This document shows positions 1 to 16,258 of a stretch of 64,000 nt of DNA, piece after piece. The notes below the pieces were generated by a model. It was given only the letters and a program-made list of their open reading frames with translations, was not told the origin of the DNA and searched no databases. Numbering within the stretch: position 1 is the stretch's first letter; the number at the start of each line of letters is the position of its first letter. The DNA comes from a virus, in the IMG/VR virus record IMGVR_UViG_3300045988_128358. The stretch is one strand, 5' to 3'. The position numbers were made by a program, and so were the translations under genes.

Positions 1-1401
1 TATTCTGTCAATTTCTTCTTCAACTACATCCATAGCACCATTATACCATAATGGAATTTCTAACGGGTTTGATGTTATCCAAGAGCCAGTAATAATATAT
101 GAATCTTGTAAACAACATGATTTATCAACAAAAATAGCAATCGTTTTATCAATTTTACTTAAATTAGCCCATTTCTCATCAATAATGCCTGCTTTTGCAT
201 ATTCATATACAAATTTAACATAATCTGTATAAAAGATTTGATGAGGGTATAAAACAAGATTATCAAAAGTCTTTTTAAGATTTAAGAACTGGTCTTTATC
301 ATAAATCCAAGCAGATTCATTATTTGTTTGAACATATTTTGCGGCAAGTCCATTCATATCATTATGGTCTTTCATATTATTATGATAATCTACATAATCA
401 TCAAACATACCTCTGTGACACATAGTATATTTTCCATCATGAATAGGAACTACTACATGGGAGAATGAACCGCACCCTCCGCCGCAGAATGGCTTTGAAC
501 AATCTAAGCATTTTTTCTTATTAAATGAATTATCGTCTCTTAATCTACCTAATAAGAATTCTACACTTGGAATATATGTTTCATAATTTGGAATCCAGCC
601 ATCTAATTGTTTTATTTTTGGAGTTACCTCTTGGATTGAACGATAAATTTTTGCTACTTCAAGACCATCTTCTTTTGTCCATTCTGCGGGAGTCGCATAA
701 TTAAAAAGACAAGGTAAAAAAAACCATTTTCTAGTCTTTCTGTTTTTATAAGGCTGATACATTTCTTTATCAAAAAATTCAAACCATTCATATGCTTTTT
801 CTGGTGTATCTACAAAATGAAATGTAGGTTTTGAAAAAGTTGGTTTAGTATGAACGTATAAATCAATTTTAGAATCATCAAATTCTAATTCGCATAAATC
901 TCTAAAATTCTTTAAGAACTTTTTAGTAACGCCTTTACCTCTTCCAAAATCATTCATCTCTTCAGGCCCATCAATTGAGACCTGAAGATCAAAATGAAAT
1001 TTTTGATTACCATGATAATGTTTAATAATTGTATCAAACAATTTTTTTAAAGATTCAACTTGGTTTGGAAGAGTAAAATTTGTTGAAGTATCTATTTCAT
1101 TAAAGTTTGGAAAAGCTTCTAAATATTCTTCAAAATGGTCTATAAAACGTTCTATATGAAGAAAAGGTTCTCCTCCCCATAAAGTAATATGTTTAATATG
1201 TTTATCTGCTTCTGGGTCAACATCATAGACTTGTTTAATTTGGCTTCCATTTTCAAAATCTTTTGCCAAATCATCATCTATTTGTTTTAAACACCCAGTA
1301 GCATCCTTACAAATATAACAATATCCACAATTAAGATTACATAAAGCAGTAGTAAATAAAGTTATATTTGTAAAGTAAATTTTTTCATTATTTTCTATCA
1401 T
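1..1401 (-). CDS. radical SAM / SPASM-domain enzyme (partial; C-terminus runs past window start)
   Basis: Minus-strand ORF starts at the ATG at 1401..1399 (MIENNEK...). It has a CNLNCGYC CxxxCxxC radical SAM cluster and a GGEP motif, plus a later Cys cluster CLDCSKPFCGGGCGS that is SPASM/twitch-like. Not in the ORF track because it is truncated at the window edge. Confidence 0.7.
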   Translation of the reverse strand, partial: MIENNEKIYFTNITLFTTALCNLNCGYCYICKDATGCLKQIDDDLAKDFENGSQIKQVYDVDPEADKHIKHITLWGGEPFLHIERFIDHFEEYLEAFPNFNEIDTSTNFTLPNQVESLKKLFDTIIKHYHGNQKFHFDLQVSIDGPEEMNDFGRGKGVTKKFLKNFRDLCELEFDDSKIDLYVHTKPTFSKPTFHFVDTPEKAYEWFEFFDKEMYQPYKNRKTRKWFFLPCLFNYATPAEWTKEDGLEVAKIYRSIQEVTPKIKQLDGWIPNYETYIPSVEFLLGRLRDDNSFNKKKCLDCSKPFCGGGCGSFSHVVVPIHDGKYTMCHRGMFDDYVDYHNNMKDHNDMNGLAAKYVQTNNESAWIYDKDQFLNLKKTFDNLVLYPHQIFYTDYVKFVYEYAKAGIIDEKWANLSKIDKTIAIFVDKSCCLQDSYIITGSWITSNPLEIPLWYNGAMDVVEEEIDRI

Positions 1402-1431
1402 TAATAACTCCTTTTACTCTTTAAAAATATA

Positions 1432-2673
1432 TTAAAAATCAACGCCCTCTACTGTATAACTACTATGGACAACAAAACATTTTCTATCAACATTACTAAA
1501 GTTACTTGTATTAACATTAGAATAATTACCACTAAATACTCCAGAGAAATCACTTGGACAAGTATTTACACTAGAATCATTTGTAGCAAAATTACTTGGA
1601 CAGTTACTGGTAAAGAAACCTGTATATCCAGTAGCATTTCCAGAGTAATTAGAAGCATTATCTCCTACACAGCTACTACCAAAACTTGTAAACTGAGTGG
1701 AATTATTTCCAGAACAACTTGTTGTATGTCCAGTAAACTTAGTATCATTATTTGCAGTATATCCACCTGTATGGAAGGAGCTTCTTTTAGCATTATTAAC
1801 AGTAGTTCTGTTAGTGCTATTTGTTCCATTTCCAGAAAATTTAGAAGCATTATGTCCGTCAAAATTACCTCTTTTAATAGCATTACCAGATAATTGAACA
1901 TCTTTACTTCCACTACTGGCCCAATTAAATACCCAATAAGAATAATGATGATGGTATTTTCCAGTTGCGAATCCACTTTTATTACCATTATGGACTTTTG
2001 AAAATTTAGAACTATTACTTCCAAAAGAACTAAAATTTGAACCATCATTAGTTGCCCATTTGGTACTAAAAAATCCACTATTAAAAGTATGATGATGTCC
2101 GCTTCTAAAAGCATTATTATAGCCCCTTCTATTAGAAGTATTATTACTAGTTCTATTACCACCACAATAACCATCTTTATGACTACCAAAATAACCATTT
2201 CTGTGACCACTGTTACCAATTACATTAAAAGTAGTATCATTAGAAGTTCTATGTACGCCATAATGTCCAGACCTATTGGCATTAAAACTACCAAAAATAC
2301 CATAATTAGAACTATTAAAACCTCCACGACGACTTGAAAAATGCTCTCGGCAAGCTTGTTCCATCATTCCAATACTTTTTTCAATTTGAGCCATAGACCT
2401 TTTTCCAATTGCGGAGCTACCTTGAGTAACTCCAACAGGAACTAAGATTGAAACGCCATTTACAAATGAAACAGTATTTTTTGTATTTACAACACTTTCA
2501 AAAATTTCATTCATAATTTGTGCGCTGGTGATTTTAACACCAAATCCAACGCTTCCTCGGTTAGAAATAGCAGAATATCTACCATTCCAAGTTCTAATAG
2601 CGTCCAATCTGTCATAATAATCTTTAATAGTAGAGGCTTGAATTGGCTGACCTGTATATACTATTCTTGCCAT
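1432..2673 (-). CDS. repeat-rich protein, candidate substrate of the downstream radical SAM enzyme
   Basis: 413 aa. The N-terminal ~120 aa look globular. The remainder is low-complexity and rich in N/S/G/T/F/H/Y (GHxxG, NxS/T repeats, HHH runs) with 5 Cys clustered near the C-terminus. The rSAM gene follows immediately on the same strand. Confidence 0.6.
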   Translation of the reverse strand: MARIVYTGQPIQASTIKDYYDRLDAIRTWNGRYSAISNRGSVGFGVKITSAQIMNEIFESVVNTKNTVSFVNGVSILVPVGVTQGSSAIGKRSMAQIEKSIGMMEQACREHFSSRRGGFNSSNYGIFGSFNANRSGHYGVHRTSNDTTFNVIGNSGHRNGYFGSHKDGYCGGNRTSNNTSNRRGYNNAFRSGHHHTFNSGFFSTKWATNDGSNFSSFGSNSSKFSKVHNGNKSGFATGKYHHHYSYWVFNWASSGSKDVQLSGNAIKRGNFDGHNASKFSGNGTNSTNRTTVNNAKRSSFHTGGYTANNDTKFTGHTTSCSGNNSTQFTSFGSSCVGDNASNYSGNATGYTGFFTSNCPSNFATNDSSVNTCPSDFSGVFSGNYSNVNTSNFSNVDRKCFVVHSSYTVEGVDF

Positions 2674-2687
2674 TCAATCACCTCTCT

Positions 2688-3062
2688 TTAAAGTCTTGGA
2701 TTTGTTTGAAAAGAAATATCTATATAATATTCTGGAGTTTCTGCGGTTTGGTCATAATCTCCTTTTGCATTTGAAATAGCTGTATATTTAGTAGTTTCAA
2801 AAACAATTTTTTCTCCATCTTTAATAGTTATATTTTTAATAGAATTATCAACTTTAAAATATGGAAGAAAATCTACTAAACTAATATTATCAAAAGTATT
2901 TACTTCTTCGCCACTGTCTGCGGAAATATAAGTAGTGATATATAAAGCCGCTGTAGTTTCTTTTTTACCAGAATTATCTGGTAATTCTCTTATTTCTAAG
3001 CCTTCTGTAAAGCTTTTAATATGGCATTGTAATTCGCCATTATTTATAATTAAAGTATACAT
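2688..3062 (-). CDS. hypothetical protein
   Basis: 124-aa ORF in the same direction with tight spacing. Confidence 0.45.
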   Translation of the reverse strand: MYTLIINNGELQCHIKSFTEGLEIRELPDNSGKKETTAALYITTYISADSGEEVNTFDNISLVDFLPYFKVDNSIKNITIKDGEKIVFETTKYTAISNAKGDYDQTAETPEYYIDISFQTNPRL

Positions 3063-3112
3063 AATTTTCTCTCTCCTTTTTAAGAAATGAAAAAAAAGAG
3101 AAAATACTTTCT

Positions 3113-3610
3113 TTAATCAGACCAGTCATGTATCTTTTCTCTTGCTTTTTCATTAACAATATATGTCCCAATACAAATCGCGTCACATTCATCTTGAGTA
3201 GCTTTTATTCCATATGTATCAAGAACATATTGTTGAGCATTTCTTTTTTGTTCAGGACGAGTGCGCCCTTTTATATTTAATGCAGATTTCCATACACTTG
3301 CTAAAGTTGCACTATTTGGTATTTTTAATTCTGTTACTAATTCATAAATAACTCCGAACACTTCTGCTAAAACCTTAAAGGTTTGAACATTATTAGTAAC
3401 ATTTCCTTGAAGTTGAATATCTTCAAAAGCTACTTCATTAATATTAAATTCTTCAATAAGTTTATTTACTTCATTTTTAATGAAGAAAAGTCTTTCCCCA
3501 ATATCTTCTTGAGTAGCATTAAATTTACCATGAGCTTCAAGCTGACCTTCATTGAAGAAGGCCCAGCCTGAAATTCGACTTGCTTGGTCTAATGCGAGTA
3601 ATCGGCTCAT
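3113..3610 (-). CDS. RuvC-like Holliday junction resolvase
   Basis: N-terminal LALDQASRISGWAFF resembles the catalytic Asp region of phage RuvC-family resolvases. 165 aa. Confidence 0.55.
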   Translation of the reverse strand: MSRLLALDQASRISGWAFFNEGQLEAHGKFNATQEDIGERLFFIKNEVNKLIEEFNINEVAFEDIQLQGNVTNNVQTFKVLAEVFGVIYELVTELKIPNSATLASVWKSALNIKGRTRPEQKRNAQQYVLDTYGIKATQDECDAICIGTYIVNEKAREKIHDWSD

Positions 3611-4272
3611 TAAGCTTCTTGCAGCACTGGCTGACTTGCCGCATCTGTAGAACCAAAACCGCCTTCCCGCAAATCAACTGTATTATCATCCTCAGTTTTT
3701 AAATAAGGTTTAATAATACCTTGACCAATACAGTCACCTTTCTTTAAGATAATAGGAACTGGGGAAAAATTAATCATCTGAAAAAAGATATGTCCCTCAT
3801 TATCTGGATTATTATAATAATCACCATCTATAATTCCTACACTATTAGCCATTACTAACCAATATTTAAGTGGACAAGAACTACGAACTGAAAGCTCTAA
3901 ATATGTGCCAGGGTCAAGTTTAACTTTAACACCTGTTGGAACTAAAGTGGGTTTTGATAAAGTTTCTTTAGTAAAAGCAGCAACTTCATCAAGCGACATA
4001 GGTCTTTCAAGATATTTTTCTTCAAGTTTTTTAGACAGCATTTCTGCAAAAATACCCTGTGAAAGATTTGAAAAATGATAATGATATGGAAGAATTATTG
4101 TATCTTCTGCTACAATAAAGTCATATCCAGCAGATTCTATAGTCTTTCTTTTAGGAAGTAAATCATTTTCGCCTTGAAATTTTTTAATTAACTCAAATTT
4201 AGCCAAATTAGATTCCCTCCTCATAAGTAACATTGATATGCTGCTCTGGATCTTTTTCTGGAGTAAATTCAA
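3610..4272 (-). CDS. dut: dUTP diphosphatase
   Basis: dUTPase motifs are present: AGYDF, GIIDGDY, REGGFGST. The true start may be an internal Met. Confidence 0.8.
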   Translation of the reverse strand: MNLLQKKIQSSISMLLMRRESNLAKFELIKKFQGENDLLPKRKTIESAGYDFIVAEDTIILPYHYHFSNLSQGIFAEMLSKKLEEKYLERPMSLDEVAAFTKETLSKPTLVPTGVKVKLDPGTYLELSVRSSCPLKYWLVMANSVGIIDGDYYNNPDNEGHIFFQMINFSPVPIILKKGDCIGQGIIKPYLKTEDDNTVDLREGGFGSTDAASQPVLQEA

Positions 4273-4456
4273 TCTTAGCTTTTACAAGCTGATACTCTTC
4301 GATAATCTCACCTTTAGCTTTAATGTATTTAGTTGTATAACTAAAATTTGTTAATTCTCCGTAAGGATTTTCAGAAAGTTCATCTCTTAAAGCTAAAGCA
4401 TCTTCTACTGTTGGAACTCTAAATACTAATGTGTTGTTAATTAAATATTTATTCAT
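4208..4456 (-). CDS. hypothetical protein
   Basis: 82-aa ORF that overlaps the annotated dut N-terminus. Confidence 0.35.
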   Translation of the reverse strand: MNKYLINNTLVFRVPTVEDALALRDELSENPYGELTNFSYTTKYIKAKGEIIEEYQLVKAKIEFTPEKDPEQHINVTYEEGI

Positions 4457-4459
4457 AAA

Positions 4460-4714
4460 TTAATTTACCTCGATTTCTAAATTATTTTCTCCATATGTTG
4501 TAATTTCACTTGCTCTAATTTTATCAGCAACACCATCACAAAAAGCAGTATCGCCATATAAATGAATTTTATTGATATTTTCTGCGGAGCAAACTTGTGG
4601 CAAAAAGCCAGGCAAGTTTGCTAAAGAAATTTGTTCTTCTTGACCGTCACTGTATTGAACCTTTTGGTAAATAGAAAATATATCAATAAAACATACAATC
4701 TCATTACTGTTCAT
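4460..4714 (-). CDS. hypothetical protein
   Basis: 84-aa ORF. Confidence 0.4.
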   Translation of the reverse strand: MNSNEIVCFIDIFSIYQKVQYSDGQEEQISLANLPGFLPQVCSAENINKIHLYGDTAFCDGVADKIRASEITTYGENNLEIEVN

Positions 4715-5249
4715 AAACTACAATTCCTTCTTCATAATCAAATAAATACATGCAGGTAACTACATCTTCATATTTAACCCAAATTTCAATAGAAGAAGCA
4801 GAACCATCTTCGAGCTTATTAATCGCAACAGATTTAACTGGACCTAAAGCCGTCAAACATTCTTTTACAGCTTTAAACAAAGTCTCAAAATCTGTTTTTT
4901 CATCTAACAAAGTTTTCTTTTTAAAGATTGTAAAATAATTTATTTCTCTGCCATAAAGCATAAAATATTTACAAGTCTTTCCCTCTAACCATTCTTTAAA
5001 AACACTTTCAGCGCCTTCCCACTGACTATCCTCAAAATCAGGGAGCTGAGAAATAATATTTCTATTCAGCTCATAAAGATTAAGCTGAAGTCCACTGGAA
5101 GTCATTTCTCCTTGGACTGGGAACCAAGCTTTATTCTGATAAAGGAAATATTCATTGCCATTATCATTTTCTATATAAGCAACCTGTCCATCAACAGGGT
5201 CTTTTATATCATTTAATTCATTTGTTGTTGTAATCTTAATTAAATCCAT
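4704..5249 (-). CDS. hypothetical protein
   Basis: 181-aa ORF with a sigma70-like promoter just upstream. Confidence 0.5.
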   Translation of the reverse strand: MDLIKITTTNELNDIKDPVDGQVAYIENDNGNEYFLYQNKAWFPVQGEMTSSGLQLNLYELNRNIISQLPDFEDSQWEGAESVFKEWLEGKTCKYFMLYGREINYFTIFKKKTLLDEKTDFETLFKAVKECLTALGPVKSVAINKLEDGSASSIEIWVKYEDVVTCMYLFDYEEGIVVYEQ

Positions 5250-5270
5250 ATTAATTAGAACTCCTTTATT

Positions 5271-5299
5271 TTATATCTATATAATATCATATTTTTTTT
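5271..5299 (-). promoter_or_regulatory. sigma70-like promoter (TTGATT-N17-TATTAT)
   Basis: Minus-strand -35 at 5294..5299 and -10 at 5271..5276 with a 17-nt spacer. It overlaps the nrdG stop. Confidence 0.5.
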
Positions 5300-5778
5300 T
5301 AAAAATCAATACCTTTTTTAAGAATATGCTGATTAGATGAACCCCTCATAAATAATGTTATATCTCTTTTATCTTTCTCAAAAGGTCCATCTATTATATA
5401 ATCAACTTTATCTAAAATTTGTTCAATTCTATTATTATTAAAATCTAAATCTTTTAAATAATATCCTGTCCATAAATAAACTTTAGTGTCAGGAAGTTTT
5501 TCTTTAACAGAATTAATAATTAAATTAGTTAAAAATTGATTTTCTGGACAAAGAGGCTCTCCTCCCATAATACATAAATTACGGTGTAATCCATTAGCAG
5601 TAATAGCTTCAATAACGTCTAAAATAGTATCATGAGTAACTTCTTCTCCGCCTTCAAAGTCCCAAGTCTCTGGATTGTGGCAACCCTCACATCTGTGAGG
5701 GCAACCTTGTGTAAAAAAAGTTACACTTACTCCAGGAGCCGCAGAAAAATCATTTTTAATAATTCCTGCATAACGCAT
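5299..5778 (-). CDS. nrdG: anaerobic ribonucleoside-triphosphate reductase activating protein
   Basis: CPHRCEGCHN radical SAM motif plus GGEP, about 160 aa. Start placed at MRYAG instead of the upstream ATG in the track. Confidence 0.85.
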   Translation of the reverse strand: MRYAGIIKNDFSAAPGVSVTFFTQGCPHRCEGCHNPETWDFEGGEEVTHDTILDVIEAITANGLHRNLCIMGGEPLCPENQFLTNLIINSVKEKLPDTKVYLWTGYYLKDLDFNNNRIEQILDKVDYIIDGPFEKDKRDITLFMRGSSNQHILKKGIDF

Positions 5779-5783
5779 TATAA

Positions 5784-5981
5784 TTATTCCTCCCAATCAA
5801 AAAGCTTGCGGCCGCAGATAGGGCAGTATTTAATATGTCGAATATATTCAAATCCTATTCCGCCATCCCAGTCGTTTGCCATATATAAAGTATCATCTGC
5901 ATCTAATTCTCTACAATATCTACATTCTTCTGCTTGTTTTAAGTATTCTTCTTTGTCGTGCCAGGTTTTATCTGCGCCCAT
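5784..5981 (-). CDS. small zinc-ribbon protein (uncertain)
   Basis: 65 aa with two CxxC pairs. It overlaps the nrdD 3' end in another frame. Confidence 0.3.
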   Translation of the reverse strand: MGADKTWHDKEEYLKQAEECRYCRELDADDTLYMANDWDGGIGFEYIRHIKYCPICGRKLFDWEE

Positions 5982-6457
5982 TCTCTTTTTCCTCCATGTT
6001 TAACACGATGTTCAACTTCATCTTGCTTACCAAGATTAAAAGCAGTTTTATAATTTCCTGTTAAATATCCAGTAACTCTTCTAAGCTGTTGGATATGAGT
6101 GCTTCCGCAAATAGGACATCTATCATTAAATTCATCTGTATAACCGCACTCAAGGCATGTGTCGTTCGGTACATTAACTGCAAAATATGGAATGTCTTTA
6201 TCCATAGCATAATTTACAATTTGCTCTAATGCTTCAAGATTATTTTTAATACCAGAATCTAATTCAACATAAGTAATACATCCCGCAGATGAATAACCAG
6301 TTAATTGAGATTCAATATCAATTTTTTCAAATGGAGACATTTCTTTCCAAACAGGAACGTGAATTGAATTAGTAAAGAATTCTTTATCACTTACATTTTC
6401 AATTACTCCATATTTTGCTTTAAAGTTTTTTAAAGCTTTATAGCAAAGGTTTTCGGC
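5939..6457 (-). CDS. nrdD: anaerobic ribonucleotide reductase NrdD, exon 3 (C-terminal)
   Basis: Contains the zinc ribbon CLECG...CPICG and the glycyl radical motif RRVTGYL. Upstream it aligns to the exon 2 end as YYTP|AENLCY. Confidence 0.8.
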   Translation of the reverse strand, partial: AENLCYKALKNFKAKYGVIENVSDKEFFTNSIHVPVWKEMSPFEKIDIESQLTGYSSAGCITYVELDSGIKNNLEALEQIVNYAMDKDIPYFAVNVPNDTCLECGYTDEFNDRCPICGSTHIQQLRRVTGYLTGNYKTAFNLGKQDEVEHRVKHGGKREWAQIKPGTTKKNT

Positions 6458-7429
6458 CATTCGAACCCTCGGTTTCCCGATATTTCATAAAAAAGGGGAT
6501 TAGACTATATTATCATCTTATTATTCTATTACCAAATAATAAGAGCTCTGTCTTTCGGATATAATATCCTACTCTACTCACTTCTTCATTATAAATATTT
6601 CTTTTATAACTATGTTTTTGATAGTCGTTAGAGAACAAATCCATTGGTTTTATATTCAGTCAAGTATCTAAACCAATATCCACAACGAGGTTTTGTTTTT
6701 ACATTGTGATTACATTGATTTAATATTGTTGTTTTTGTAACGTGTAATTCTCTTGAAGCTTCTCCTACAGAGCCATACATCTTTAATAGATTGCCCTGTA
6801 AATCAAAACTACAAATATGAATTGATTGATTATCATCCCAACTTTTATCATTTTTAGCAAGACCATCTTTATAAGCATCTTTAGTATTTTTTGAATTAGT
6901 CCCCCATTCAAGATTAGATACTTCAGGGTTTGCTTTATTATTATCTTTATGCATTACTACTGTATAATTATTTGGATTAGGCAAAAAAGCTTCTGCAACT
7001 AAAATATGCACTCTTCTTTGTCTTTGTCCTTCTGGATAAGTTATACTGGAATATAAATATCCATTATTTTTATTTATAAAATTTGCTTTGGGATAAAATA
7101 AATCATTTCCATAATCTTTATAAATATTACCTTTTGAAGAAATATAATCAGTTTCACTTCCATTAATTAATCGTATTTCTTCATTAATTTGACTTCTTTT
7201 AATTAATTTATCTGTCATTTTTCTACGTGCCATAAAAAATTCACTCTCCTTCTATATTATATGAATTTTTATTATACACGACTGAAAACTTGTGTCCAAT
7301 GAATTTACCCTACGGGATTAACTTGCCTTATTACAGGTTTAGTCTCTCTTATCATCTTATTACGATTGCCCGTTTAACAGAGTTGTTTTTTCACACAATC
7401 ACTTGTGCGACTCCCAATCCGAAAAGTTT
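6458..7429 (-). mobile_element. group I intron (nrdD intron 2) carrying an HNH homing endonuclease
   Basis: Exon 2 ends in U (cct) at 7430 and the intron ends in G at 6458, giving an in-frame junction. P7-like elements gatagtcg (~6616..6634) and gactatattatc (~6495..6520) are present. Confidence 0.7.
6628..7233 (-). CDS. HNH homing endonuclease (intron-encoded)
   Basis: The HILVAEAFLPNP...VMHKDNNKANPEVSNLEWGT motif is an HNH_3-type signature. Confidence 0.8.
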   Translation of the reverse strand: MARRKMTDKLIKRSQINEEIRLINGSETDYISSKGNIYKDYGNDLFYPKANFINKNNGYLYSSITYPEGQRQRRVHILVAEAFLPNPNNYTVVMHKDNNKANPEVSNLEWGTNSKNTKDAYKDGLAKNDKSWDDNQSIHICSFDLQGNLLKMYGSVGEASRELHVTKTTILNQCNHNVKTKPRCGYWFRYLTEYKTNGFVL

Positions 7430-7948
7430 AGGAGTATAATATACACCAAAATTAAGCTTATATTCTTCTTTAAATTCCGCACATCTATCTTTAAATAACT
7501 GTTCAATTCTTTTAGCCAATTTCATTCCTTCTGGAGTGGTATGGTCTGTACCAATAAGAATTTGAAGAGTCTCAGCAAGTCCTAACTGACCTACTGCTAA
7601 AGTCCCATGCTTCAATGCACTTCTGATTCCTTCTTCTGGAATATATCCTTTCATTGTACCGTTCTCATACATGAAGGTTGCAGCAGAAGCATCCTGAGAA
7701 CAAATCCAATCAAAGCGTTCAATCAACATATCTTTTGCCTGATGAATTTTTTCATCTAAAAGAGTCATAAAATACTCAATTGCAAAAGCTTCTTTTGCAT
7801 CTTCACCAGTTAAAGCATATTGAGACATAAAGTTTTGTTTAGCCTCCATTGCTAATGTAGGTAAGATAATTGTTACAGGACAAATATTTCCACGACCATC
7901 TTTTAACTGACCAAAACCGTTAATATCGTACCCATTGGCAGTTCTGCA
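7430..7948 (-). CDS. nrdD: NrdD exon 2
   Basis: The frame opens upstream of the track's Met and reads CRTANGYDINGFGQLKDGRGNICPVTIILPTLA. This is the conserved NrdD GRGN...TINLP region. Splicing to exon 1 yields MGC|R. Confidence 0.8.
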
Positions 7949-8838
7949 CGTGTTTATCTGATGTCACCATCAGCACTGACTATATTATCATTCTATTTAA
8001 AAGTAAATAGAGTTGTCTTCCGCTTCGGTTCTCAGTTGCTTCGTTTCCTAAAACAACGACGGTGCTTATCTCCGTCCCTACTCCCATACATTCATCAGGG
8101 ATAGTCGATACACTTTATTCATTATAATATTCAAAAATCCAAGTATTTTTATAAGGACTTTTTATTTGTCCATTTAATCTGGCCGAAATAGATGTTTTAC
8201 CATTTTTAATTCCACAAGCTTTAGCACAACTAATAACAGTATCAAATATATCCACTTCATTAGTAATAATATTTGTTCGTTTAACTTTTCGTGCCATAGA
8301 GTTTTTAGAACCTATTTTTGTTTGTCGAATTTTTTCTTTGATAATTTCCATCTCTTCTTCAGTTTTAGAACGATATGTATTGCCTCCGCATTTAGATATT
8401 GCATCTGTTTCATTATATCCTTCTTCAACTGAATTATAAAATCTAATCCAATATTGCTCTTTTTGGTTTAATTCATCTTGAGTTTGAGCGGTATCAATTT
8501 CTTCTATGATAAAACTGTCTTTGCCATATTTCCTAATAGCTCTGGCAAAATGTGTATCTAAAATATTATTGACAGCATCATTCAGATGTCGATGAAATCT
8601 TTGATTTATTGGCCGTATTGTTTGACCAATATAAACTTTATTATTTTGAATATTTGTTATTTTATATATCCACATATAGCCTCCTCCTATGTGTGAATAT
8701 TATAATGAATCTTAGCACGGTCTCATCTTAACAACAAACTGCAAAGTCATTAAGACCTAACCGTTAGCTTATATATTAGAATATATAAACACCTGTTAGC
8801 ACAGTTCAAAAGATTTTAAATGGGCTGAGTTTTCGCTT
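7949..8838 (-). mobile_element. group I intron (nrdD intron 1) carrying a GIY-YIG homing endonuclease
   Basis: Exon 1 ends in U (ggt) at 8839 and the intron ends in G at 7949. Splicing restores the MGCR active-site loop. Conserved core elements gggatagtcgatacac (8098..8113) and tgtcaccatcagcactgactat (7962..7985) are shared with the gyrB introns. Confidence 0.75.
8115..8675 (-). CDS. GIY-YIG homing endonuclease (intron-encoded)
   Basis: IYKITNIQNNKVYIGQT, R..., YWIRFYNS and N make up the GIY-YIG motifs. Confidence 0.85.
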   Translation of the reverse strand: MWIYKITNIQNNKVYIGQTIRPINQRFHRHLNDAVNNILDTHFARAIRKYGKDSFIIEEIDTAQTQDELNQKEQYWIRFYNSVEEGYNETDAISKCGGNTYRSKTEEEMEIIKEKIRQTKIGSKNSMARKVKRTNIITNEVDIFDTVISCAKACGIKNGKTSISARLNGQIKSPYKNTWIFEYYNE

Positions 8839-10134
8839 ACCCATTGTAGAGAAGTAGGTACGAGGGTCGTTGATGTCATATCCTGCGTTTCCAGACCAGT
8901 CGACATTAGCATAATTTGGGTACAGTCTTGTGGCGGTTGAACGTAATGCGAGTTTAAACAAATCGTAATTTGGGTCTCCTTCTTCACGATTAACTCCTTT
9001 CATACATTGAAAAATTCCGCAAGGGAAAATAGAAGTTTTATGAAGCTTCCCAATACCTTTAATAGATACGTTTAATAGAGCTTCTATTACTAATCTTCCT
9101 TCTGGTAAAGTACATGTACCATAATTAATAGAAGTAAAAGGTAATTGGTTTCCGCTTCGAGATTGTAATGTATTAAGATTGTGATACATTCCTTCTACGG
9201 CTTGATAAGTTTCTTTTGTTGTCATATCTATAGCATATTTATAAGCTACTTCATTTCTAACAAATACGTCATCATTAATAGAAGCATCAGCCTTAATCCA
9301 TATTTCTTTTGCATTAGATAAGTCAAAATCTTCATAGGTTCCAGCTAATCCAAGCATTTGATCTTTTTGACAATACTTAATACCTTCTAAGAAATGTTTA
9401 TAAAAACTTTTACGAACATAAGGAACCATACTCCAGTCTAAGTGAGTAGCAGATACTCCTCCAAACTGTTGTAATGATTGTAACTGGAATAATACTGCCA
9501 AAAGCTGAAAAGCTGTATTAACAGATTGCGCGGGACGAACATCCGTCTGACGAGTATTAAAACCATCTCTAAGTAAATCATCTATAGGCAATGACAAACA
9601 ATTATGCATTCCAACAGCATAACTATCTAAGTCATGAATATAAATCTCATTGTTTAAATGATTATCTCTTGACATTTTAGATACGATATAATCTAAAGCA
9701 TATTTTTTTGTCATAACTGAACTTGCTTCACCCATACGTCCACCAAAAGAATGTTCATCTACATTAGCATTTTGATTTTGAACGTTGCGGGCTTCCAATT
9801 TTTCACTATAAGTTTTAACAAAAACTGCCTCGTGCTCTCTCTTTGCTTCTTGTTTATATCTATAACGAATATATGCTCTTGCGACATCTCTTCTTTCAGA
9901 TTGCATTAATAAATCTTCTACACAATCCTGAATAGTTTCTACAGAAATAGTTGTCTTAGAGCGTTTAGCCATTTCTTCAATTTCAGTAGCAATGTCTTCT
10001 GAAGTATCTGCTTCATAAAGGATTTTATCTACTTCAATCATTGCTCTGTTTACTGCATCAATAATTTTTTCTTTATCAAATGGGACAATATCACCATTTC
10101 GTTTTTGGACTTCTAACATATTGTATCCCTCCAT
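8839..10134 (-). CDS. nrdD: NrdD exon 1 (N-terminal, ATP-cone)
   Basis: N-terminal ATP-cone VQKRNGDIVPFDKEKIIDAV. The ORF reads on to 8806 but those residues are intron read-through. Confidence 0.85.
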
Positions 10135-10193
10135 CTATATTTAGTAAAATTTTTTAAGTCTTAACACTATATATGGTTTTTGCGATAGATAAA

Positions 10194-10766
10194 TTATCCA
10201 ATCCTGTTCTCCAACCGCTGTGCCGCGGCAGATACAACTTTCACATTGAAGTCCATATTTTTTCTATCTTCATTTATTAATTCATTATAATGAAAATCTA
10301 AATCGGCAAAATCTTCTCTATCAGCTTTATATCTTCTGATAATTTCATCAACATTTGGATTTTCTTCTCTATTCAACTGCCGCAATAATCGAGTCTTATC
10401 TTTGGCAGTTACATAATATACTACAAGCTCAATGTTTTTATGAGCCATTAAACTATCAATTCCTTCTGGATTAAAGACTCCGATATTAACACAATCAGAA
10501 CGTAATGAGCCAAAACCAGTTCCATAAAACCAGTCATTGAAACAGGCAGCTTCCAGCATTTCACCTGCCAGAAGCTTTTCTGCAAATTCTTCACCAGAAA
10601 TAAAATGATAATTAATTCCATCTTTTTCTCCCTCTCTTGGAGGTCTTGTTGTAAAACTAACTATCTCATGGAGGTTGTGATTAACTTTTAAAACCTCTTG
10701 CATAAGAGTATCTTTTCCGCTACCAGCTTCTCCAATGATAGCAAGAATTTTATAAGAACCTATCAT
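10194..10766 (-). CDS. guanylate kinase-like nucleoside monophosphate kinase
   Basis: GEAGSGKDT P-loop and TTRPPREGEKDGINYHF match the guanylate kinase signature. Confidence 0.7.
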   Translation of the reverse strand: MIGSYKILAIIGEAGSGKDTLMQEVLKVNHNLHEIVSFTTRPPREGEKDGINYHFISGEEFAEKLLAGEMLEAACFNDWFYGTGFGSLRSDCVNIGVFNPEGIDSLMAHKNIELVVYYVTAKDKTRLLRQLNREENPNVDEIIRRYKADREDFADLDFHYNELINEDRKNMDFNVKVVSAAAQRLENRIG

Positions 10767-11125
10767 ACGCTTGCTTCTTCCTCTTTACCTGTTGACTCTC
10801 CTGCATTAGTATTTTCACCTGGTTTATTTGCTTTATCCATCTCTTCCTGATATTTCCTCATTTCTTCTTGCATAATACTTTCTCTCTGGAAGAATGTACT
10901 TAAATCAGAAACCTCATTATCACTTTCTTTTAATTTAAACAAATCTGTTAAAGTTTTATGAAGAGCAGGAACAATTTTTGGAGCGCACTCTTTACAAATG
11001 TCCATATTATGACTACACATATAGCCCATAGAATTAGCATAATTAAAATTAATATTACCAGTATCTAAATTCTCGGTAATTTCATGTCCACATAAATCAC
11101 AAACTCTTTTTACTACTTGACTCAT
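10763..11125 (-). CDS. hypothetical zinc-finger protein
   Basis: CDLCGH...CKEC cysteine pairs, 120 aa. Confidence 0.45.
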   Translation of the reverse strand: MSQVVKRVCDLCGHEITENLDTGNINFNYANSMGYMCSHNMDICKECAPKIVPALHKTLTDLFKLKESDNEVSDLSTFFQRESIMQEEMRKYQEEMDKANKPGENTNAGESTGKEEEASV

Positions 11126-11164
11126 ATCTTTATTCTCCTTTTTATTGATATATTAGAGAAGATG

Positions 11165-13753
11165 TTAAAAAACATCTTCTCCTTGGTATCTATCGCTTCT
11201 AATTTCCAAACTTCCATCTTCATTGATTTTATCAATTTTATATAATTGATGTCCATTAGAAGAAGCATATTTCTTAGAGATAAAATCATCTCCTGACCTA
11301 ATGCCCATTACTATAATCATATTTCCTCGATTGAACCAAGATTTTTCTCGAACCTTTTTAGTTCCATCTTCTTGTTTTTCAGAAATCTGCTTATCAAATA
11401 ATGAGAAATATTCTTTTCTAAATTTAACATTAACTACTCCAGAAGTTGTCAATATAGTTACTGTACTTTTAGTTTTATTTTTAGCAATGCAAGTGCCGCA
11501 AATTTTATTCAATTTGAATATGTTAATTTGCTTTGCACCTTTTGTAAATGTTCTTTCTATGATAGGTTCTTGCGGCAATTTATCAAAATCAACAAAACCA
11601 TATCTTTGAGTATCAACATGAGATAATTCATGTTCATGGTAATAGAAACATAATGCTTGCATTTCCCAAGCTGATAAAGTTCCTTGAGCATATTTATCCC
11701 AATCATCCTTAAAGATTTTTTCATTTAAGTTCTGAAGAATTTGTTCTTTTTCTTCCGCAATCCAATCTCTGAATATATCCATCCATTTTTGATATACTTT
11801 GTCCCATGCTTTCATATTTAAAGAATAACCCTCTAATAAATCATCATGCTCCATTTCAATCAAAAAGTTCATTGCTCTATCATCTATATGATAATTAGTT
11901 GTATCACCCTTAATTTTACAAACAGATTTTAAATAACGATTAAATTCATAAACTCTTCTCGCCATAATCTGTTGTTCATTTTTTTCTGGAAGAAGATTAT
12001 ACTTAATTAAACCTCCCATATTTTGTAATGTAATTCGTTTCTTTTTATCACAAGTTTCCCAAATATACCAACCCATACAAATCTTGCGGTCAATCATTGT
12101 ATCAAATGCTCCACCTTTAATAAGTGAAATCATCGCTTGTTTATTTGGACGCACTTTTAATAAAAAGTCTTTAGGTGAAATATAAGGTCTATTTTTAATA
12201 ATGTCATCAATTACTGCATCACTAACATTCAATAAACCTTTCATTCCATAAAGAATCTGATTATTTTTAGCATCAGGCTTAAATCCATAATCTGAATTAT
12301 TTATATCAACAAGACTCATTTTAATTCCAGCTGATATAATTTCACCCATCGCCTTTGCAATCTTTCCATAATCAGTTGAAGCTGTTTTCTTTACAGAAAT
12401 AGATTCAGATTCATCATCCTCTTCAATCTCTAAGTTACTATTATCTTCAAGTGAACCACTATTTACAATTAAGCATGCACAATCCCAATAAATAGGATTC
12501 CAATTTGTTGCAATATATAATGTTTGAACACCAATGAAACTATAAGCAAGTGCATGAATAACACTAAAAGAATAACCCATCTGCGGACCAACTCCACATT
12601 TCCATACATACTGTCCAAGCTTCTCACTTGCCGCCTGTGCCAATACTTTTTCATGTAAAGCTGGAATTTTATTCATTTGTTTTTTACCAACAATCTTACG
12701 AGCCGCATTTGCTTCTCCAAGACTAAAGTGACAAATCTTATCATCCATTAACATTCTCATTAACTGTTCCTGTGAAGGCGGAACTCCATAAGAACTCTTA
12801 AAGTAAGGTTCAAGAGTTTTCTGCTCTTCTTCGGTAAGACCAAATTTTGTCATTTCATCATACCATAATTGAATGTTTTGTTTAAAACGATAATATTTAT
12901 CCATTGGGCGCTCTTCTCCATCTTCGCCCATAAGTCTCATCAGACCATTCGCATCGGCCATTTCCAATACATTCTGAGGTTTTAATTTCTTCGCAACCTG
13001 CGCACCAACCTGAGAATCAAACTGAAAAGTATTAATAACAGATACTTTACCCAATGCGTCCCAAATCTTTTGATCGGTTAAAGGTAAAACATTAGGATGA
13101 AAATATTTATCATAGACCTCCCGCAAACTTAATTCTGGTTCAATTTCATTATCCTCTTGGAGTAACTGAATAGTTTGAACCAACTTATCTTGAACTTCAG
13201 TTACAAGAAAATCATATTTTGTTAATCCCATATACTCGGCATCATGTAAATCAAACTGAGTAGTAATCTCACCTTTTGGAGTTTTCATAAAAGCACTATG
13301 CTCAAATGGGTCATCTCCAAATAAAATTACGCCAGATGCATGAGAACCTCTATGGTTTACAAGACCTTCAATAGCTACAATAATATCCAATAAACCTGGA
13401 TATTTATTTACTTCATTAACAAATGTCTTAACAGGTTTACGACCTTTTTCTGGATTTCCATAAACAACTTCTTTAATTGTCCATAAAAATCCTCTTTCTT
13501 CTGGAATTAATGAACTCATATACTGAGCTTCATCAACATCAATTCCCTCTGGATAATCTTCACTTCTATAACCTCTACAAGCTGTTTGAATTGCAGACTT
13601 AGTTCCTTCTGTACCAAAAGTTGCTACAAGAGTACATCCAAGATTTTTCTTTGCCCACTCCATAATATTATCATAAAACATCTTTCCACGTTCTTCTTTA
13701 ATTTTACGAAGAATTTCTGGACGTTTAGATGGACATATATCAATATCAATATC
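11165..13753 (-). CDS. DNA polymerase III alpha-like (DnaE-type), exon 2
   Basis: Begins DIDIDICPSKRP (E. coli DnaE has DFDVDFCMEKRD). GSHASGVILFGD and GLTKYDFL pol III alpha motifs are present. Confidence 0.8.
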   Translation of the reverse strand, partial: DIDIDICPSKRPEILRKIKEERGKMFYDNIMEWAKKNLGCTLVATFGTEGTKSAIQTACRGYRSEDYPEGIDVDEAQYMSSLIPEERGFLWTIKEVVYGNPEKGRKPVKTFVNEVNKYPGLLDIIVAIEGLVNHRGSHASGVILFGDDPFEHSAFMKTPKGEITTQFDLHDAEYMGLTKYDFLVTEVQDKLVQTIQLLQEDNEIEPELSLREVYDKYFHPNVLPLTDQKIWDALGKVSVINTFQFDSQVGAQVAKKLKPQNVLEMADANGLMRLMGEDGEERPMDKYYRFKQNIQLWYDEMTKFGLTEEEQKTLEPYFKSSYGVPPSQEQLMRMLMDDKICHFSLGEANAARKIVGKKQMNKIPALHEKVLAQAASEKLGQYVWKCGVGPQMGYSFSVIHALAYSFIGVQTLYIATNWNPIYWDCACLIVNSGSLEDNSNLEIEEDDESESISVKKTASTDYGKIAKAMGEIISAGIKMSLVDINNSDYGFKPDAKNNQILYGMKGLLNVSDAVIDDIIKNRPYISPKDFLLKVRPNKQAMISLIKGGAFDTMIDRKICMGWYIWETCDKKKRITLQNMGGLIKYNLLPEKNEQQIMARRVYEFNRYLKSVCKIKGDTTNYHIDDRAMNFLIEMEHDDLLEGYSLNMKAWDKVYQKWMDIFRDWIAEEKEQILQNLNEKIFKDDWDKYAQGTLSAWEMQALCFYYHEHELSHVDTQRYGFVDFDKLPQEPIIERTFTKGAKQINIFKLNKICGTCIAKNKTKSTVTILTTSGVVNVKFRKEYFSLFDKQISEKQEDGTKKVREKSWFNRGNMIIVMGIRSGDDFISKKYASSNGHQLYKIDKINEDGSLEIRSDRYQGEDVF

Positions 13754-14920: not shown

Positions 14921-16258
14921 ACCGAGTTCGATTCTCTCTTCATTAAGATAACGGAAAAAAGGTAAGTCCCACTCGATTGGATCCAACTGAGTAATTCCCA
15001 TAAGATAATGATTAAGTGCGGCACAACTGGAACCACGACCAGCACCTACCATTGAACCGCAATCCCAAATCATATCAATATAATGCTGAAGTGTATTTGG
15101 ATAACGAAACATATTTGTTTCAAGTTTTTCACTAATGATACTTTTAACTCGTGCCTCTTCCTCAAGCTCATCAAGATAACGTCTATCATTAATTTTTTCA
15201 AGTTTTTCAAGCTGATTTAAACATTCATTTACCCAATAACGATTCTGAATATCATCATCCATTAACATTGCAGATAAATGTGGATACTGCCTAAATCCTC
15301 TTACTTTTGGATAATCTTTAACTTCTACAGATGGAATATCCTGCTTATGAAAAAGACTATAATATTCAATTTTATTCTGTAAATCTAAGGTGTTTTCAAA
15401 AATTACATCTACATATCCATCTGGAAAACATGGAGATAATAATTCTTCTACTTCATCACTATCCATAAGTCTGGCAAATTCATAAAAGTCATCAACTTCA
15501 CGCTCTCCGCCTTTTGAATTAAGATATGCTTTATGAACCATTCTATCTTCTTTTGTTAAATAATGAGAGTCAGTTCCAACAACCATTTTAACATTATATG
15601 CAGTTGCAATTTTAAACAACTGAGAATTTACAGTCATTTGGTCTTCTTTATTAGATGGAGCACATTCAATATAAAAATCATCTCCAAATAAATCAAGTAC
15701 AAAATCCATAAACTCTTGAATTTTTTGCTGAAATTCCATCGCCATTTTTTGGTCATTTACTTTTAAAGCTTCTGCATATAATAAAGACCATGAAGATAAT
15801 TCTCCACCAATACATGCACTTGTTGCAATTAAATGACCTTTATAATGTTTTACAATCTCAGTTAATTCATCTTTTAAAGTTGGAACTCTTTCCATACCTC
15901 TATCCATATATGAATAATACCAAGCTGTAGAACTTAATTCTCTTAATGCTTTATGACCAATTGCATCTTTAGCAATCAAAATAAAGTGATAATATTTCTG
16001 ACCATGATTTCTTGTATCAGTTAAATAAATCTCATTTCCTAACCCAATCACAAAATTAGGATTTGTTTCTCTTAACTCTGTCGCAATTTTATTTATTTCA
16101 ACGTGCGCACAAAGGGCTTCATGGTCAGTTATACAGATACCACTAAGTCCTAATTCGATTGCTTTATTAATTAAATCTTTTGGGTGATTGGTTGAATCCA
16201 AAAGACGTAAGTTTGAATACTCTGTATGGTTATGACAATTAAACCACTTTTTGCTCAT
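14921..16258 (-). CDS. DNA polymerase III alpha-like, exon 1 (PHP domain)
   Basis: PHP motif CHNHTEYSNLRLLDS and GAGRGSSCAALNHYLMGITQLDP (DnaE [23 protein letters not shown]) are present. Confidence 0.8.

Follow-up and report, generated by a model that had tools for sequence, protein, structure and literature searches.

Why does a phage carry a radical-SAM gene directly behind a gene for a long, low-complexity repeat protein? The locus that raises this question lies in a 64,000-nt stretch of DNA (the window) from an uncultured gut phage of ~195 kb. The initial annotation described two adjacent genes on the same strand, about 30 nt apart, and took them for a thioether- or crosslink-forming maturase paired with its substrate. 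We found the arrangement to be as described, with the repeat gene (2673..1432) followed on the minus strand by rSAM1 (1401..1) across a 30-nt spacer. The full contig, however, extends the pair to a cassette of 5–7 genes in the order 124-aa protein, repeat protein, rSAM1, rSAM2, 224-aa protein, and two paralogous U32-like proteins. The packing is operon-like, with no terminator-like sites found between the cassette genes on the minus strand, and the genes inside the window probably make up the 5′ portion of an operon. The cassette comes after NrdD/NrdG, dUTPase, RuvC, and guanylate kinase genes, in a replication and nucleotide-metabolism block and not in a structural module. The features are as follows.

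2688..3062, minus strand: 124-aa small protein, first gene of the cassette, 14 nt upstream of the repeat gene
1432..2673, minus strand: repeat protein, the putative maturase substrate ("precursor"), 413 aa; ATG at 2673, stop at 1434-1432
2335..2673, minus strand: N-terminal domain of the repeat protein, aa 1–113; three predicted helices, motif D(I)xxYYxRLNxxR..G; ends at junction Cys108 (codon 2352-2350)
1966..2325, minus strand: repeat region 1, aa 117–236; ~15 octads with consensus [N/F/H]-R-[S/N]-G-[Y/F/H]-x-x-[S/A/T]; dN/dS 0.32
1888..1965, minus strand: central conserved motif, aa 237–262, TGKYHHHYSYWVFNWA...KDVQL; dN/dS 0.16
1480..1887, minus strand: repeat region 2, aa 263–398; ~17 looser octads rich in F/Y-S-G-N and N-x-S/T, holding C320, C335, C358, and C372
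1435..1479, minus strand: C-terminal motif, aa 399–413, CFVVHSSYTVEGVDF; nearly invariant in the 413-column alignment; dN/dS 0.11
1402..1431, minus strand: 30-nt spacer between repeat gene and rSAM1; Shine–Dalgarno sequence AAAGGAG at 1414-1408, 6 nt before the ATG at 1401, as read from the sequence
1..1401, minus strand: rSAM1, divergent radical-SAM enzyme, aa 1–467 of 474, cut by the window edge 7 residues before the C-terminus
1318..1341, minus strand: radical-SAM cluster motif C21-x3-C25-x2-C28 of rSAM1, invariant in 76 sequences
1165-1179, minus strand: WGGEP, aa 75–79 of rSAM1, invariant
418..513, minus strand: auxiliary-cluster Cys region of rSAM1, aa 297–328, CLDCSKPFCGGGCG...MCHRG
L001:12694-14088, just outside the window: rSAM2, second radical-SAM enzyme, with a full 7-Cys SPASM motif

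The repeat gene is, by its pattern of substitution, a real coding gene under purifying selection. By region, dN/dS is 0.21–0.32 among 14 close relatives, with 0.11–0.32 as the range for the 413-aa protein and its motifs, and 20 homologues with identity down to 65% are all exactly 413 aa long, with zero gaps over 413 columns. A spurious low-complexity frame or a decaying gene would be in keeping with the several overlapping ORFs in alternative frames, the very low confidence of the AF2 model (pLDDT 26.5 with 20 close homologues, unusable), and the lack of any database domain. We give this explanation practically no weight because the evolutionary data already refute it: dN/dS is below 0.35 in every segment, the alignment is ungapped, the Shine–Dalgarno sequence and operon packing are good, and dozens of divergent proteins share the architecture. 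The alternative-frame ORFs (1465-1893, plus strand; 1665-2219, minus strand; 2089-2337, plus strand) are by-products of low-complexity sequence. Values of dN/dS near 0.3 also rule out diversifying selection on the repeats of the kind found in receptor-binding proteins.

Residues ~117–398 make up the degenerate N/S/G/T/F/H/Y-rich array that had been noted at the outset (N+S+T+G = 0.48), with a weak 8-residue period (identity autocorrelation 0.15 at lag 8 versus a baseline of 0.10). Because TRF sees only a single 24-nt period of 2.3 copies in the gene (2152-2207), the array is a degenerate protein repeat rather than a tandem repeat in the DNA. Arg occupies octad position 2 in 44% of the units, and 14% of the repeat residues are aromatic. 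Relative to shuffled sequences, N-x-S/T is in excess in repeat region 2 (23 observed versus 11.7), as is [FYW]-x-[ST] in the protein (18 versus 11.5 ± 2.6, p ~0.009); the generic aromatic-x-X motif (29 versus 31.9) and, in the repeats, the general aromatic-x-[polar] motif show no enrichment. The N-terminal helices are taken from a low-confidence AF2 model, and the motif of the N-domain is family-wide. The central motif is an invariant block in the 413-column alignment and can be recognised in L003 (DHHYWLFHA), L032, and L005 (L numbers denote lineages), and [FY]xVEG[ILV]D closes the homologues in L003, L005, L021, L032, and P0145-P0158.

Across the family, precursors are 140–474 aa long; most retain the N-domain and the junction Cys, whereas both the unit and the composition of the repeats are hypervariable. 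A phmmer search of the N-domain against 1.84e9 representatives returned 21 proteins with the same architecture, and its profile found 17 unnamed proteins, without domain fusions, in a 5.8e9-protein set; against PDB and Pfam the profile gave only noise and no homologue. The repeat protein itself had no match in Pfam, NCBIfam, PHROG, or GenBank phages. The window protein has seven Cys for ~32 repeat units, namely C108, C169, and the five near the C-terminus (C320, C335, C358, C372, and C399) to which the initial annotation drew attention. Those five are present as claimed but are not conserved across the family, in which the Cys count runs from 3 to 57. The only near-universal Cys is the one at the border of N-domain and repeats (C108 is kept in at least 90% in an alignment of 15 divergent members). 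Most of the examined repeats have Ser and Thr among their commonest residues. None of the residue types is enriched in all lineages, and the L011, L049, and L037 clades have only ~3% aromatics in their repeats. Given this lack of a lineage-wide enrichment, and of an excess of generic aromatic-x-X, the target chemistry cannot be read from the sequence. Two candidate general properties were rejected: N-glycosylation-type N-x-S/T sequons are enriched twofold in the window clade and not in the L011, L037, L043, and L044 clades, and basic nucleic-acid binding is not a family trait, the pI spanning 4.1 to 10.2 across lineages (9.6 for the repeat region in the window clade).

The window edge removes the C-terminus of rSAM1 and not, as first thought, its N-terminal side. 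The enzyme belongs to the radical-SAM superfamily, having the CxxxCxxC motif, whose Cys are ligands of the SAM-binding [4Fe-4S] cluster, and a partial TIM-barrel core with a GGE-type SAM-binding motif, and PF04055 matches it with 31.6 bits (cutoff 29.5). The claim of two Cys clusters holds for the invariant CxxxCxxC but not in full for the second: the window enzyme carries C297-x2-C300-x5-C306-x3-C310, of which the first two are not conserved in the family, C306 is mostly conserved, and, within the auxiliary region, only C310 and C328 are invariant (C430, at nt 112-114, is a further invariant Cys). Neither PF13186 nor TIGR04085, the SPASM HMMs, matches rSAM1, which lacks the SPASM set of seven Cys, C-x9-15-G-x4-C ... 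C-x2-C-x5-C-x3-C ... C, by which two auxiliary clusters are bound. Because neither the C-terminal Cys of the substrate nor the Cx2Cx5Cx3C of rSAM1 is conserved, thioether formation at those Cys is not a general mechanism. At the level of fold, the rSAM1 model (AF2, pLDDT 91) has ChlB, anSME, CteB, and TigE as its nearest structures, all of them peptide- or protein-modifying, with MoaA and BlsE clearly lower. The top NCBIfam matches of the cassette rSAMs are likewise all peptide-maturase families, each far below its cutoff and mostly covering the N-terminal core alone. A search of the rSAM gene for an RRE, which had been recommended, found no room for one: the cluster motif begins at residue 21 in rSAM1 and 33 in rSAM2, the model opens at core strand β1, and neither enzyme has an N-terminal RRE. 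PqqD did not match the 124-aa or the 224-aa protein, although a divergent stand-alone RRE may escape such detection. Tier-2 rSAM1 matches (~28% identity) are distant rSAM1-type enzymes and not the paralogue rSAM2, and an apparent intron in the rSAM1 of the close relative L020 is an artefact, the second HSP lying on the paralogous rSAM2.

rSAM2 has the seven-Cys SPASM set, with C316, C334, C382, C385, C391, C395, and C414 invariant in 14 orthologues (TIGR04085, 18 bits against a cutoff of 27), and its profile matches CteB in the PDB (5wgg, E 9e-7) over the core and SPASM region. The 124-aa protein has no Pfam, NCBIfam, or PHROG match; genes of 107–124 aa at the same position in L003, L005, L021, L031, and L032 are linked to it by BLASTP (1e-4 to 1e-22), and positional analogues occur in L007, L009, L025, L027, and L063. 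The two U32-like proteins lie side by side just outside the window and are paralogous with a probability of 97.4% (hhalign). PF01136 matches three of eight members (best 1.3e-5), the window-phage copy having no significant Pfam match; C189, C193, and C221 are invariant, including a C-x3-C, and most members have a Cys at the C46 position; the U32 family is characterised by four conserved Cys that hold a [4Fe-4S] cluster. No conserved transporter or dedicated leader protease was found in the cassette.

We then asked how constant the arrangement is. A low-complexity repeat protein stands directly upstream of rSAM1 and rSAM2 in 26 of the 29 divergent lineages that carry an rSAM1-type gene (it is missing in L039, L046/47, and L048), and rSAM2 immediately follows rSAM1 wherever sequence exists. 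Most lineages have the conserved N-domain; L010 and L036 have a short N-terminus followed by a Cys-rich repeat. The flanking genes vary, being replication genes in the window phage, tail genes in L049 and L050, and endolysin and holin genes in L007 and L011. Tandem duplicate precursor genes occur in L036, L045, and L051; L005, and apparently L058 too, have M28-like peptidase genes close by. In L037 a YcaO cyclodehydratase (PF02624, E 1.6e-35) abuts a Cys/Ser/Thr-rich precursor, and YcaO is present also in L036 and L052. The phages that carry the cassette are uncultured and come from several independent series of metagenome samples, human gut among them. Among the GenBank phages of INPHARED we found it in no cultured phage: no match came from a 6-kb megablast query or from tblastn queries with the repeat protein, the L011 rSAM2, and P0075, and rSAM1 gave one weak partial match, to an unannotated 6-kb faecal contig. 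We found no description of the cassette in the literature.

The initial annotation had named two outcomes that would speak against it, and neither occurred: the classification of rSAM1 does not place it among nucleotide or cofactor enzymes, and co-conservation of repeat protein and rSAM is strong across differing neighbourhoods. Thus, a dedicated maturase for a protein-sized, phage-encoded substrate stands, even though thioether formation at the C-terminal Cys does not hold as a general mechanism. We infer with strong confidence that the repeat protein is the substrate of the cassette rSAMs, and, because the arrangement is kept across very different phages, the cassette is most likely a protein-sized RiPP pathway, previously undescribed. 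As in RiPP pathways, the precursor adjoins its modifying enzymes and combines a conserved leader-like N-domain with a variable core; a product of <10 kDa released by leader proteolysis is not indicated (the precursor has 413 aa, the "core" ~300), and no RRE was recognised in the maturases or in the 124-aa and 224-aa proteins.

The mechanism that we favor, with a probability of roughly 65%, is leader-guided, iterative radical maturation of a whole phage protein, as RiPP pathways do for peptides. The 413-aa protein would be the dedicated substrate, with the predicted three-helix N-domain up to junction Cys108 as a leader-like handle for the enzymes and the ~32 degenerate octads as a very long "core." rSAM1 would serve as a divergent SPASM/twitch-like enzyme and rSAM2, a relative of PapB and CteB, as a canonical SPASM enzyme with all 7 Cys. 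Each would generate a 5′-deoxyadenosyl radical from SAM and abstract C–H hydrogens in the repeat units, presumably acting iteratively along the array. Expected products would be C–C or C–O crosslinks at aromatic-x-Ser/Thr, C–S bonds at the few Cys, and/or oxidised Ser/Thr, and the UbiU/UbiV-like U32 pair of the window phage clade probably adds O2-independent hydroxylation. Such maturation would yield a large protein, made rigid by covalent bonds, that functions whole. Because the cassette adjoins tail-fibre and lysis genes in several lineages, a virion-associated or lysis-released surface structure is weakly suggested as the most plausible role; the fibre, adhesin, or effector roles proposed at the start may be held no more firmly. 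Only tentatively do we postulate that, in phages of anaerobic habitats, the repeat protein is stitched and oxidised over its full length by the two rSAMs, with U32 hydroxylases or YcaO in some clades, and then serves as virion fibre, adhesive coat, or anti-protease armour.

Two other explanations accept the genes as real. In one, the repeat protein is a multi-core precursor, comparable with fungal dikaritin precursors or PqqA: once modified, it would be cut at regularly spaced Arg/Lys, and the many short modified peptides, or a small molecule derived from them, would act as a signal, antimicrobial, or cofactor after release at lysis. The Arg at octad position 2, the U32 "peptidase"-family genes within the cassette, the M28-like peptidase genes of L005 and apparently L058, and the tandem precursor genes of some lineages are consistent with such processing. 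We nonetheless consider it improbable: the units are degenerate and not near-identical cores, neither a transporter nor a leader protease is conserved, and characterised U32 members are Fe–S hydroxylases, not proven proteases (PMC6747719, PMC10990095). Moreover, the length is strictly 413 aa, and conservation is highest in two unique motifs, the central and the C-terminal one (dN/dS 0.16 and 0.11); both argue for a protein that works as one piece.

The remaining explanation, somewhat less probable again, is that the rSAMs and the U32 pair modify nucleic acid (phage DNA, or host tRNA or rRNA bases, as RlhA and TrhP do) or a small molecule, and that the repeat protein is unmodified, disordered or fibrous, and merely travels along. 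Characterised U32 enzymes do target quinones and RNA (PMC6747719, PMC10990095), the window cassette follows nucleotide-metabolism genes, its repeat region is basic, and cultured phages such as CP220 hold anSME-like rSAMs in what seem to be sugar- or base-modification clusters. Against this, the order precursor–rSAM1–rSAM2 persists whether replication, tail, or lysis genes flank it, the structures nearest to rSAM1 all act on peptides or proteins, and YcaO adjoins Cys/Ser/Thr-rich precursors. Nor can nucleic-acid binding be general, given repeat regions of the opposite charge (pI 4.1) in other lineages.

Leader-guided maturation of the whole protein has partial parallels among known systems. PapB works repeatedly on a repeated motif within one precursor, and QhpD (rSAM-SPASM) and MCR maturation (YcaO and rSAM) are precedents for modifying a protein subunit and not a peptide. 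The likeness to PapB and CteB lies in the 7-Cys SPASM of rSAM2, whose L011 orthologue aligns with positions 3–321 of 330 of the PapB model; thioether chemistry has been described for PapB (PMC12373016). In contrast to these enzymes, the cassette rSAMs score 25–49 bits against cutoffs of 340–425, lack an N-terminal RRE, and always come as two phage-borne paralogues. Their substrates have 140–474 aa with a novel ~100-aa N-domain and not <60 aa rich in Cys, and in many lineages the Cys content is low and variable; the window precursor, with 7 Cys for ~32 units, does not offer a donor Cys at every site. TIGR03906, the QhpD family, is the top NCBIfam match of rSAM2, but with 30 bits against a cutoff of 453, and the substrates of QhpD/QhpC and of MCR maturation are enzyme subunits with few defined sites, not hypervariable repeat arrays. 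anSME enzymes (AtsB/AslB) share the full-length protein substrate, need no RRE, and oxidise Ser or Cys; TIGR03942, however, scores 27.7 bits against a cutoff of 349, rSAM1 has no conserved full SPASM Cys set, and the window repeat protein lacks the C/S-x-P/A-x-R sulfatase motif, there being no sulfatase gene either.

Triceptide synthases (ChlB, OscB/GrrM, FxsB) act on aromatic-X-X motifs, in which they link the aromatic ring to Cβ of residue three (PMC11499958). ChlB ranks first among the structural matches of rSAM1 and [FYW]-x-[ST] is enriched in the window repeats, but HMM scores of the cassette enzymes fall far under the cutoffs, and with ~3% aromatics in L011, L049, and L037 cyclophane formation cannot be the universal reaction. 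CXXX-repeat systems with an rSAM (TIGR04115/TIGR04117) resemble the CxxxC-repeat substrates of the distant family members L010, L050, and L036 (the L010 protein matches TIGR04117 with 28.8 bits, below cutoff), and His-Xaa-Ser systems also have paired rSAMs according to their NCBIfam descriptions. These Haft-type and other repeat-target systems, including Cys-every-fifth and His-Xaa-Ser, are bacterial, act on short peptides, and are themselves uncharacterised, whereas the phage family has a distinct N-domain and a fixed rSAM1–rSAM2 pair. UbiU and UbiV form an Fe–S heterodimer that hydroxylates aromatic rings without O2 (PMC6747719, PMC10990095). Like UbiU/UbiV, RlhA, and TrhP, the U32-like paralogues are paired and have conserved Cys, with very weak similarity; a protein substrate would be unprecedented for the U32 family.

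To our knowledge, nearly all radical-SAM/SPASM maturases described so far act on short peptides of bacteria. The phage cassette follows the same logic with putative substrates of 140–474 residues, which combine a conserved handle with a variable core and have dedicated enzymes; if the proposed pathway is correct, this would be a new kind of post-translational maturation for phage proteins. Should the product be a stitched fibre, no other virion or phage structural protein would be known to owe its maturation to radical-SAM chemistry, and SPASM enzymes would gain a new class of substrate. For enzymology, the cassette would provide two as yet uncharacterised clades of rSAMs that come with their own poly-site substrate; anaerobic U32 hydroxylases, too, may have a protein as substrate here. 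In biotechnology, an enzyme pair able to act on dozens of degenerate repeats would make a tolerant tool for protein crosslinking. The proposed role further bears on the many orphan radical-SAM genes of phages: the 11–12 of Campylobacter phage CP220, as far as we know, have been without a functional assignment since 2010. We considered the CP220 cluster as a cultured analogue of the cassette, but its radical-SAM genes lie with amidinotransferase and glycosyltransferase genes and without a repeat protein, and it is a different system.

The initial annotation placed a repeat-protein gene and a radical-SAM gene next to each other on one strand about 30 nt apart, and we indeed found both on the minus strand (which carries every long ORF of the window), with a 30-nt spacer bearing an AAAGGAG ribosome-binding site. 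The radical-SAM gene (rSAM1) starts at 1401 and leaves the window at base 1; because it encodes 474 aa on L001, a 134.7-kb human-gut metagenome contig on which the same sequence occurs, only its last 7 residues are missing from the window. The proposal that an upstream part of the enzyme was missing and might hold a RiPP recognition element (RRE) is thus moot, since the N-terminus lies inside the window and CxxxCxxC begins at residue 21. An N-terminal RRE is absent from both rSAM1 and the second radical-SAM protein, rSAM2. We found no terminator-like sites between the cassette genes in the window.

Gene order of the cassette on L001 (window coordinates where applicable)
3062..2688, minus strand: small protein, 124 aa, conserved inside the gut clade
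2673..1432, minus strand: repeat protein, 413 aa
1401..1, minus strand, cut by the window edge: rSAM1, 474 aa
4-nt overlap with rSAM1: rSAM2, 464 aa
after rSAM2: protein without assigned function, 224 aa (helical, poorly conserved)
after the 224-aa gene: U32-like protein, 263 aa
after the 263-aa gene: U32-like protein, 332 aa
final gene ahead of opposite-strand genes: protein without assigned function, 194 aa

Homologues of rSAM1 fell into two tiers (33-97% and ~23-30% identity), and contigs were fetched from both; collections of viruses, genomes, and metagenomes were scanned as well. Of 29 distinct lineages, 26 have a low-complexity repeat protein (140-474 aa) encoded directly ahead of the rSAM1-type gene, and rSAM2 lay directly downstream of that gene in every lineage with sequence available there. 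In the window phage the cassette borders on replication genes; lineage L049 has Sipho_Gp37 and fiber-like tail genes beside it, L050 fn3/fiber-like genes, and L007 and L011 an endolysin and a holin. A fixed three-gene core amid changing surroundings is strong evidence for functional coupling.

The repeat protein had no match in Pfam, NCBIfam, or PHROG, and tblastn found none among GenBank phages. All 20 homologues (65-99% identity) share its length of exactly 413 aa, and the alignment contains no gap. Conservation is highest over the first ~113 residues, in the central block GKYHHHYSYWVFNWA, and at the C-terminal CFVVHSSYTVEGVDF; the two regions between these blocks vary through substitution only. 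The dN/dS values (Nei-Gojobori, 14 genes) were 0.21 for the N-domain, 0.32 and 0.29 for the repeats, 0.16 for the central block, and 0.11 for the C-terminus, with 0.07 for rSAM1. We conclude that the 413-aa gene is real and constrained and that its repeats are relaxed rather than diversifying. Because selection acts on this frame, we rejected as genes the alternative-frame ORFs of 82-184 aa at 1465-1893 (plus), 1665-2219 (minus), and 2089-2337 (plus), which are rich in I/L/V or S/T/I and are by-products of biased codon content. The repeats show a weak 8-residue period and are barely repetitive at the DNA level. AlphaFold2 gave no usable model of the protein (pLDDT 26.5). A search of the window protein for the sulfatase motif found none; [FYW]-x-[ST] was enriched (18 versus 11.5), and the generic triceptide motif was not.

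rSAM1 clears the Pfam radical-SAM threshold by a narrow margin, and its best NCBIfam matches (GggB, PapB, a twitch family, YhhB, AmcB, CefB, QhpD, and anSME) are all peptide- or protein-modifying, far under their cutoffs, and confined to the N-terminal core. The AlphaFold2 model, built on a 76-sequence alignment, was confident (pLDDT 90.8, pTM 0.91), and the C-terminal part of the enzyme (aa 330-474) is helical; Foldseek ranked anSME top (E 5.5e-8), followed by TigE, and structural comparison gave scores of 18.1 for the triceptide synthase ChlB (PMC11499958), 17.9 for anSME, 17.6 for CteB, 16.4 for TigE, and 14 or lower for BlsE, MoaA, SuiB, SkfB, PqqE, and EpeE. Among 76 homologues C21, C25, C28, C310, C328, and C430 are invariant and C306 is mostly kept, while conservation fails at C297 and C300, which belong to an apparent Cx2Cx5Cx3C motif, and C31 is absent from the distant tier. 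This pattern indicates that rSAM1 is not a canonical seven-Cys SPASM protein, and a single, twitch-like auxiliary cluster fits it better. rSAM2, for its part, keeps seven auxiliary Cys in a SPASM arrangement, and its profile matches CteB (E 9e-7) in the core as well as in the SPASM region; its orthologue in L011 aligned over nearly all of the PapB model. A "CHR" motif common to the two enzymes suggests that they are old paralogues.

Between lineages the repeat unit itself changes.

Repeat units of the putative substrate by lineage
Window: NRSG[YFH] octads
L003: TFHS/TVHS octads
L005: ~20-mer NRSTFTKAVNGTNFS
L021: 24-mer VNYTFAAHCxxYC
L011, L049: xSNGT pentads
L037: HGTQTNTAC
L010, L036, L050: CxxxC arrays
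L045, L054: acidic D/S/Y repeats

Most of these proteins share an N-terminal domain (~75-110 residues) with a near-universal Cys at its end; in L010 and L036 just a short N-terminus precedes the Cys-rich repeats. A C-terminal strand motif is shared within clades. Composition ranges widely (3-57 Cys, 3-23% aromatics, pI 4.1-10.2), N-x-S/T enrichment is limited to some clades, and no residue class is present in the repeats of all lineages, Ser/Thr coming nearest. In L049 and L011, of the pentad clades, 10 of 11 and 5 of 8 Cys, respectively, lie within N-x-x-C; this placement resembles the NxxC beta-thioether motif but may just reflect the repeat period. Precursor genes occur as tandem pairs in L036, L045, and L051. 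A YcaO cyclodehydratase gene (PF02624, E 1.6e-35) abuts the precursor in L037 (L037:3084-4964), and YcaO is also present in L036 (L036:2-1153) and L052 (L052:4565-5767); precursors of this sub-clade are rich in Cys/Ser/Thr/His.

The cassette has the pattern of a RiPP pathway: its precursors, duplicated in places, join a conserved N-terminal handle to a hypervariable core, and its enzymes are dedicated and of SPASM type, with a YcaO on occasion. To our knowledge, its putative substrate is several times bigger than any known RiPP precursor core. The repeat protein's fixed length and the unique motifs conserved in its center and at its C-terminus speak for a protein that functions intact and against one cut into units, and we therefore favor a scheme in which the whole repeat protein would undergo iterative, leader-guided radical modification. 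Enzymes and substrates may have diversified together. As to role, a virion-associated or lysis-released structure is favored by the tail and lysis neighborhood in several lineages, though not by the replication module that houses the cassette in the window phage.

U32-like genes are found alongside the core in at least 10 lineages. Three of eight members of the 332-aa family match Peptidase_U32 (best 1.3e-5), with a weak match to the U32 structure 5d88; C189-x3-C193 and C221 are invariant, and most members have a Cys at the C46 position. The 263-aa protein is a paralogue of the 332-aa protein (hhalign 97.4%). Characterized U32 proteins are Fe-S, O2-independent hydroxylases, of which UbiU and UbiV, themselves paralogues, join as a heterodimer (PMC6747719, PMC10990095). 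The adjacent U32-like pair (L001:14758-16534), encoded directly past base 1 of the window, resembles these two anaerobic hydroxylases and has conserved Cys. Acting on a protein would be a novelty for the U32 family.

We found no description of the cassette in curated families, solved structures, cultured phages, or the searched literature. We class it with known rSAM/SPASM maturase systems, from which it differs in that the putative substrate is hypervariable and of protein scale, the twin rSAMs are obligate, and the system is carried by phages. Cultured phages such as CP220-type, KVP40, and Derbicus carry distant anSME-like rSAMs but lack a repeat-protein substrate. Campylobacter phage CP220 (FN667788:70690-77721) has five radical-SAM genes, of a fold related to rSAM1, alongside one amidinotransferase gene and two for glycosyltransferase-like proteins, but no repeat-protein partner; this cluster has had no role assigned since 2010 (PMC2853527).

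In-frame TAGs within the precursor and rSAM genes of L007 (7160-7981; for example, L007:7306 and 7327), L009, L025, L035, L037, L044, L063, and L065, at 2-7 per rSAM1 gene, indicate TAG stop-codon reassignment in these contigs; the window phage keeps to the standard code. The 277-kb contig L010 holds four radical-SAM genes within one 17-kb stretch (1429-13925), together with a 243-aa CxxxC-repeat protein, a separate 402-aa protein with an N-domain and SN(K/Q)TY repeats, and an aldo-keto-reductase/ferredoxin fusion. This very large phage, or other element, may carry a multi-substrate form of the system. In environmental clades the precursor is closely preceded by a gene for a protein of 62-107 aa with the ending "...(I/L)W(I/V)D(S/T)...LK(Y)YNG..W..I" (L043:493-723; L049:4726-4932; a 107-aa ORF in L034; L054:194-400; L010:7745-7933); this protein may be an additional cassette component.

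Near-identical viral genomes in IMG/VR span 117-196 kb. Upstream of the cassette lie NrdD, interrupted by homing-endonuclease ORFs, NrdG, dUTPase, RuvC, guanylate kinase, and Pol III alpha. Homing endonucleases are unusually abundant in this replication module.

Interrupted and inserted genes of the replication module
5939-10134, minus strand: NrdD (anaerobic ribonucleotide reductase) in three ORFs, 8806-10134, 7391-7849, and 5939-6460
8115-8675: GIY-YIG endonuclease, between NrdD pieces
6628-7233: HNH endonuclease, between NrdD pieces
11165-16258, minus strand: DNA polymerase III alpha in two ORFs, 456 aa (14888-16258) and 863 aa (11165-13756)
13893-14678: GIY-YIG/NUMOD3 endonuclease, between the Pol III alpha pieces
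28805-29797: GIY-YIG ORF
36613-37356: GIY-YIG ORF, between both topoisomerase II subunit genes

NrdD is a single 769-aa ORF on the related contig L003, and its interruptions in the window are probably homing-endonuclease-bearing introns. Also amid the replication genes are an endolysin-like 567-aa protein (phrog_20388; 40864-42567, minus strand) and an SPFH/flotillin-like 510-aa protein (45280-46812, minus strand).
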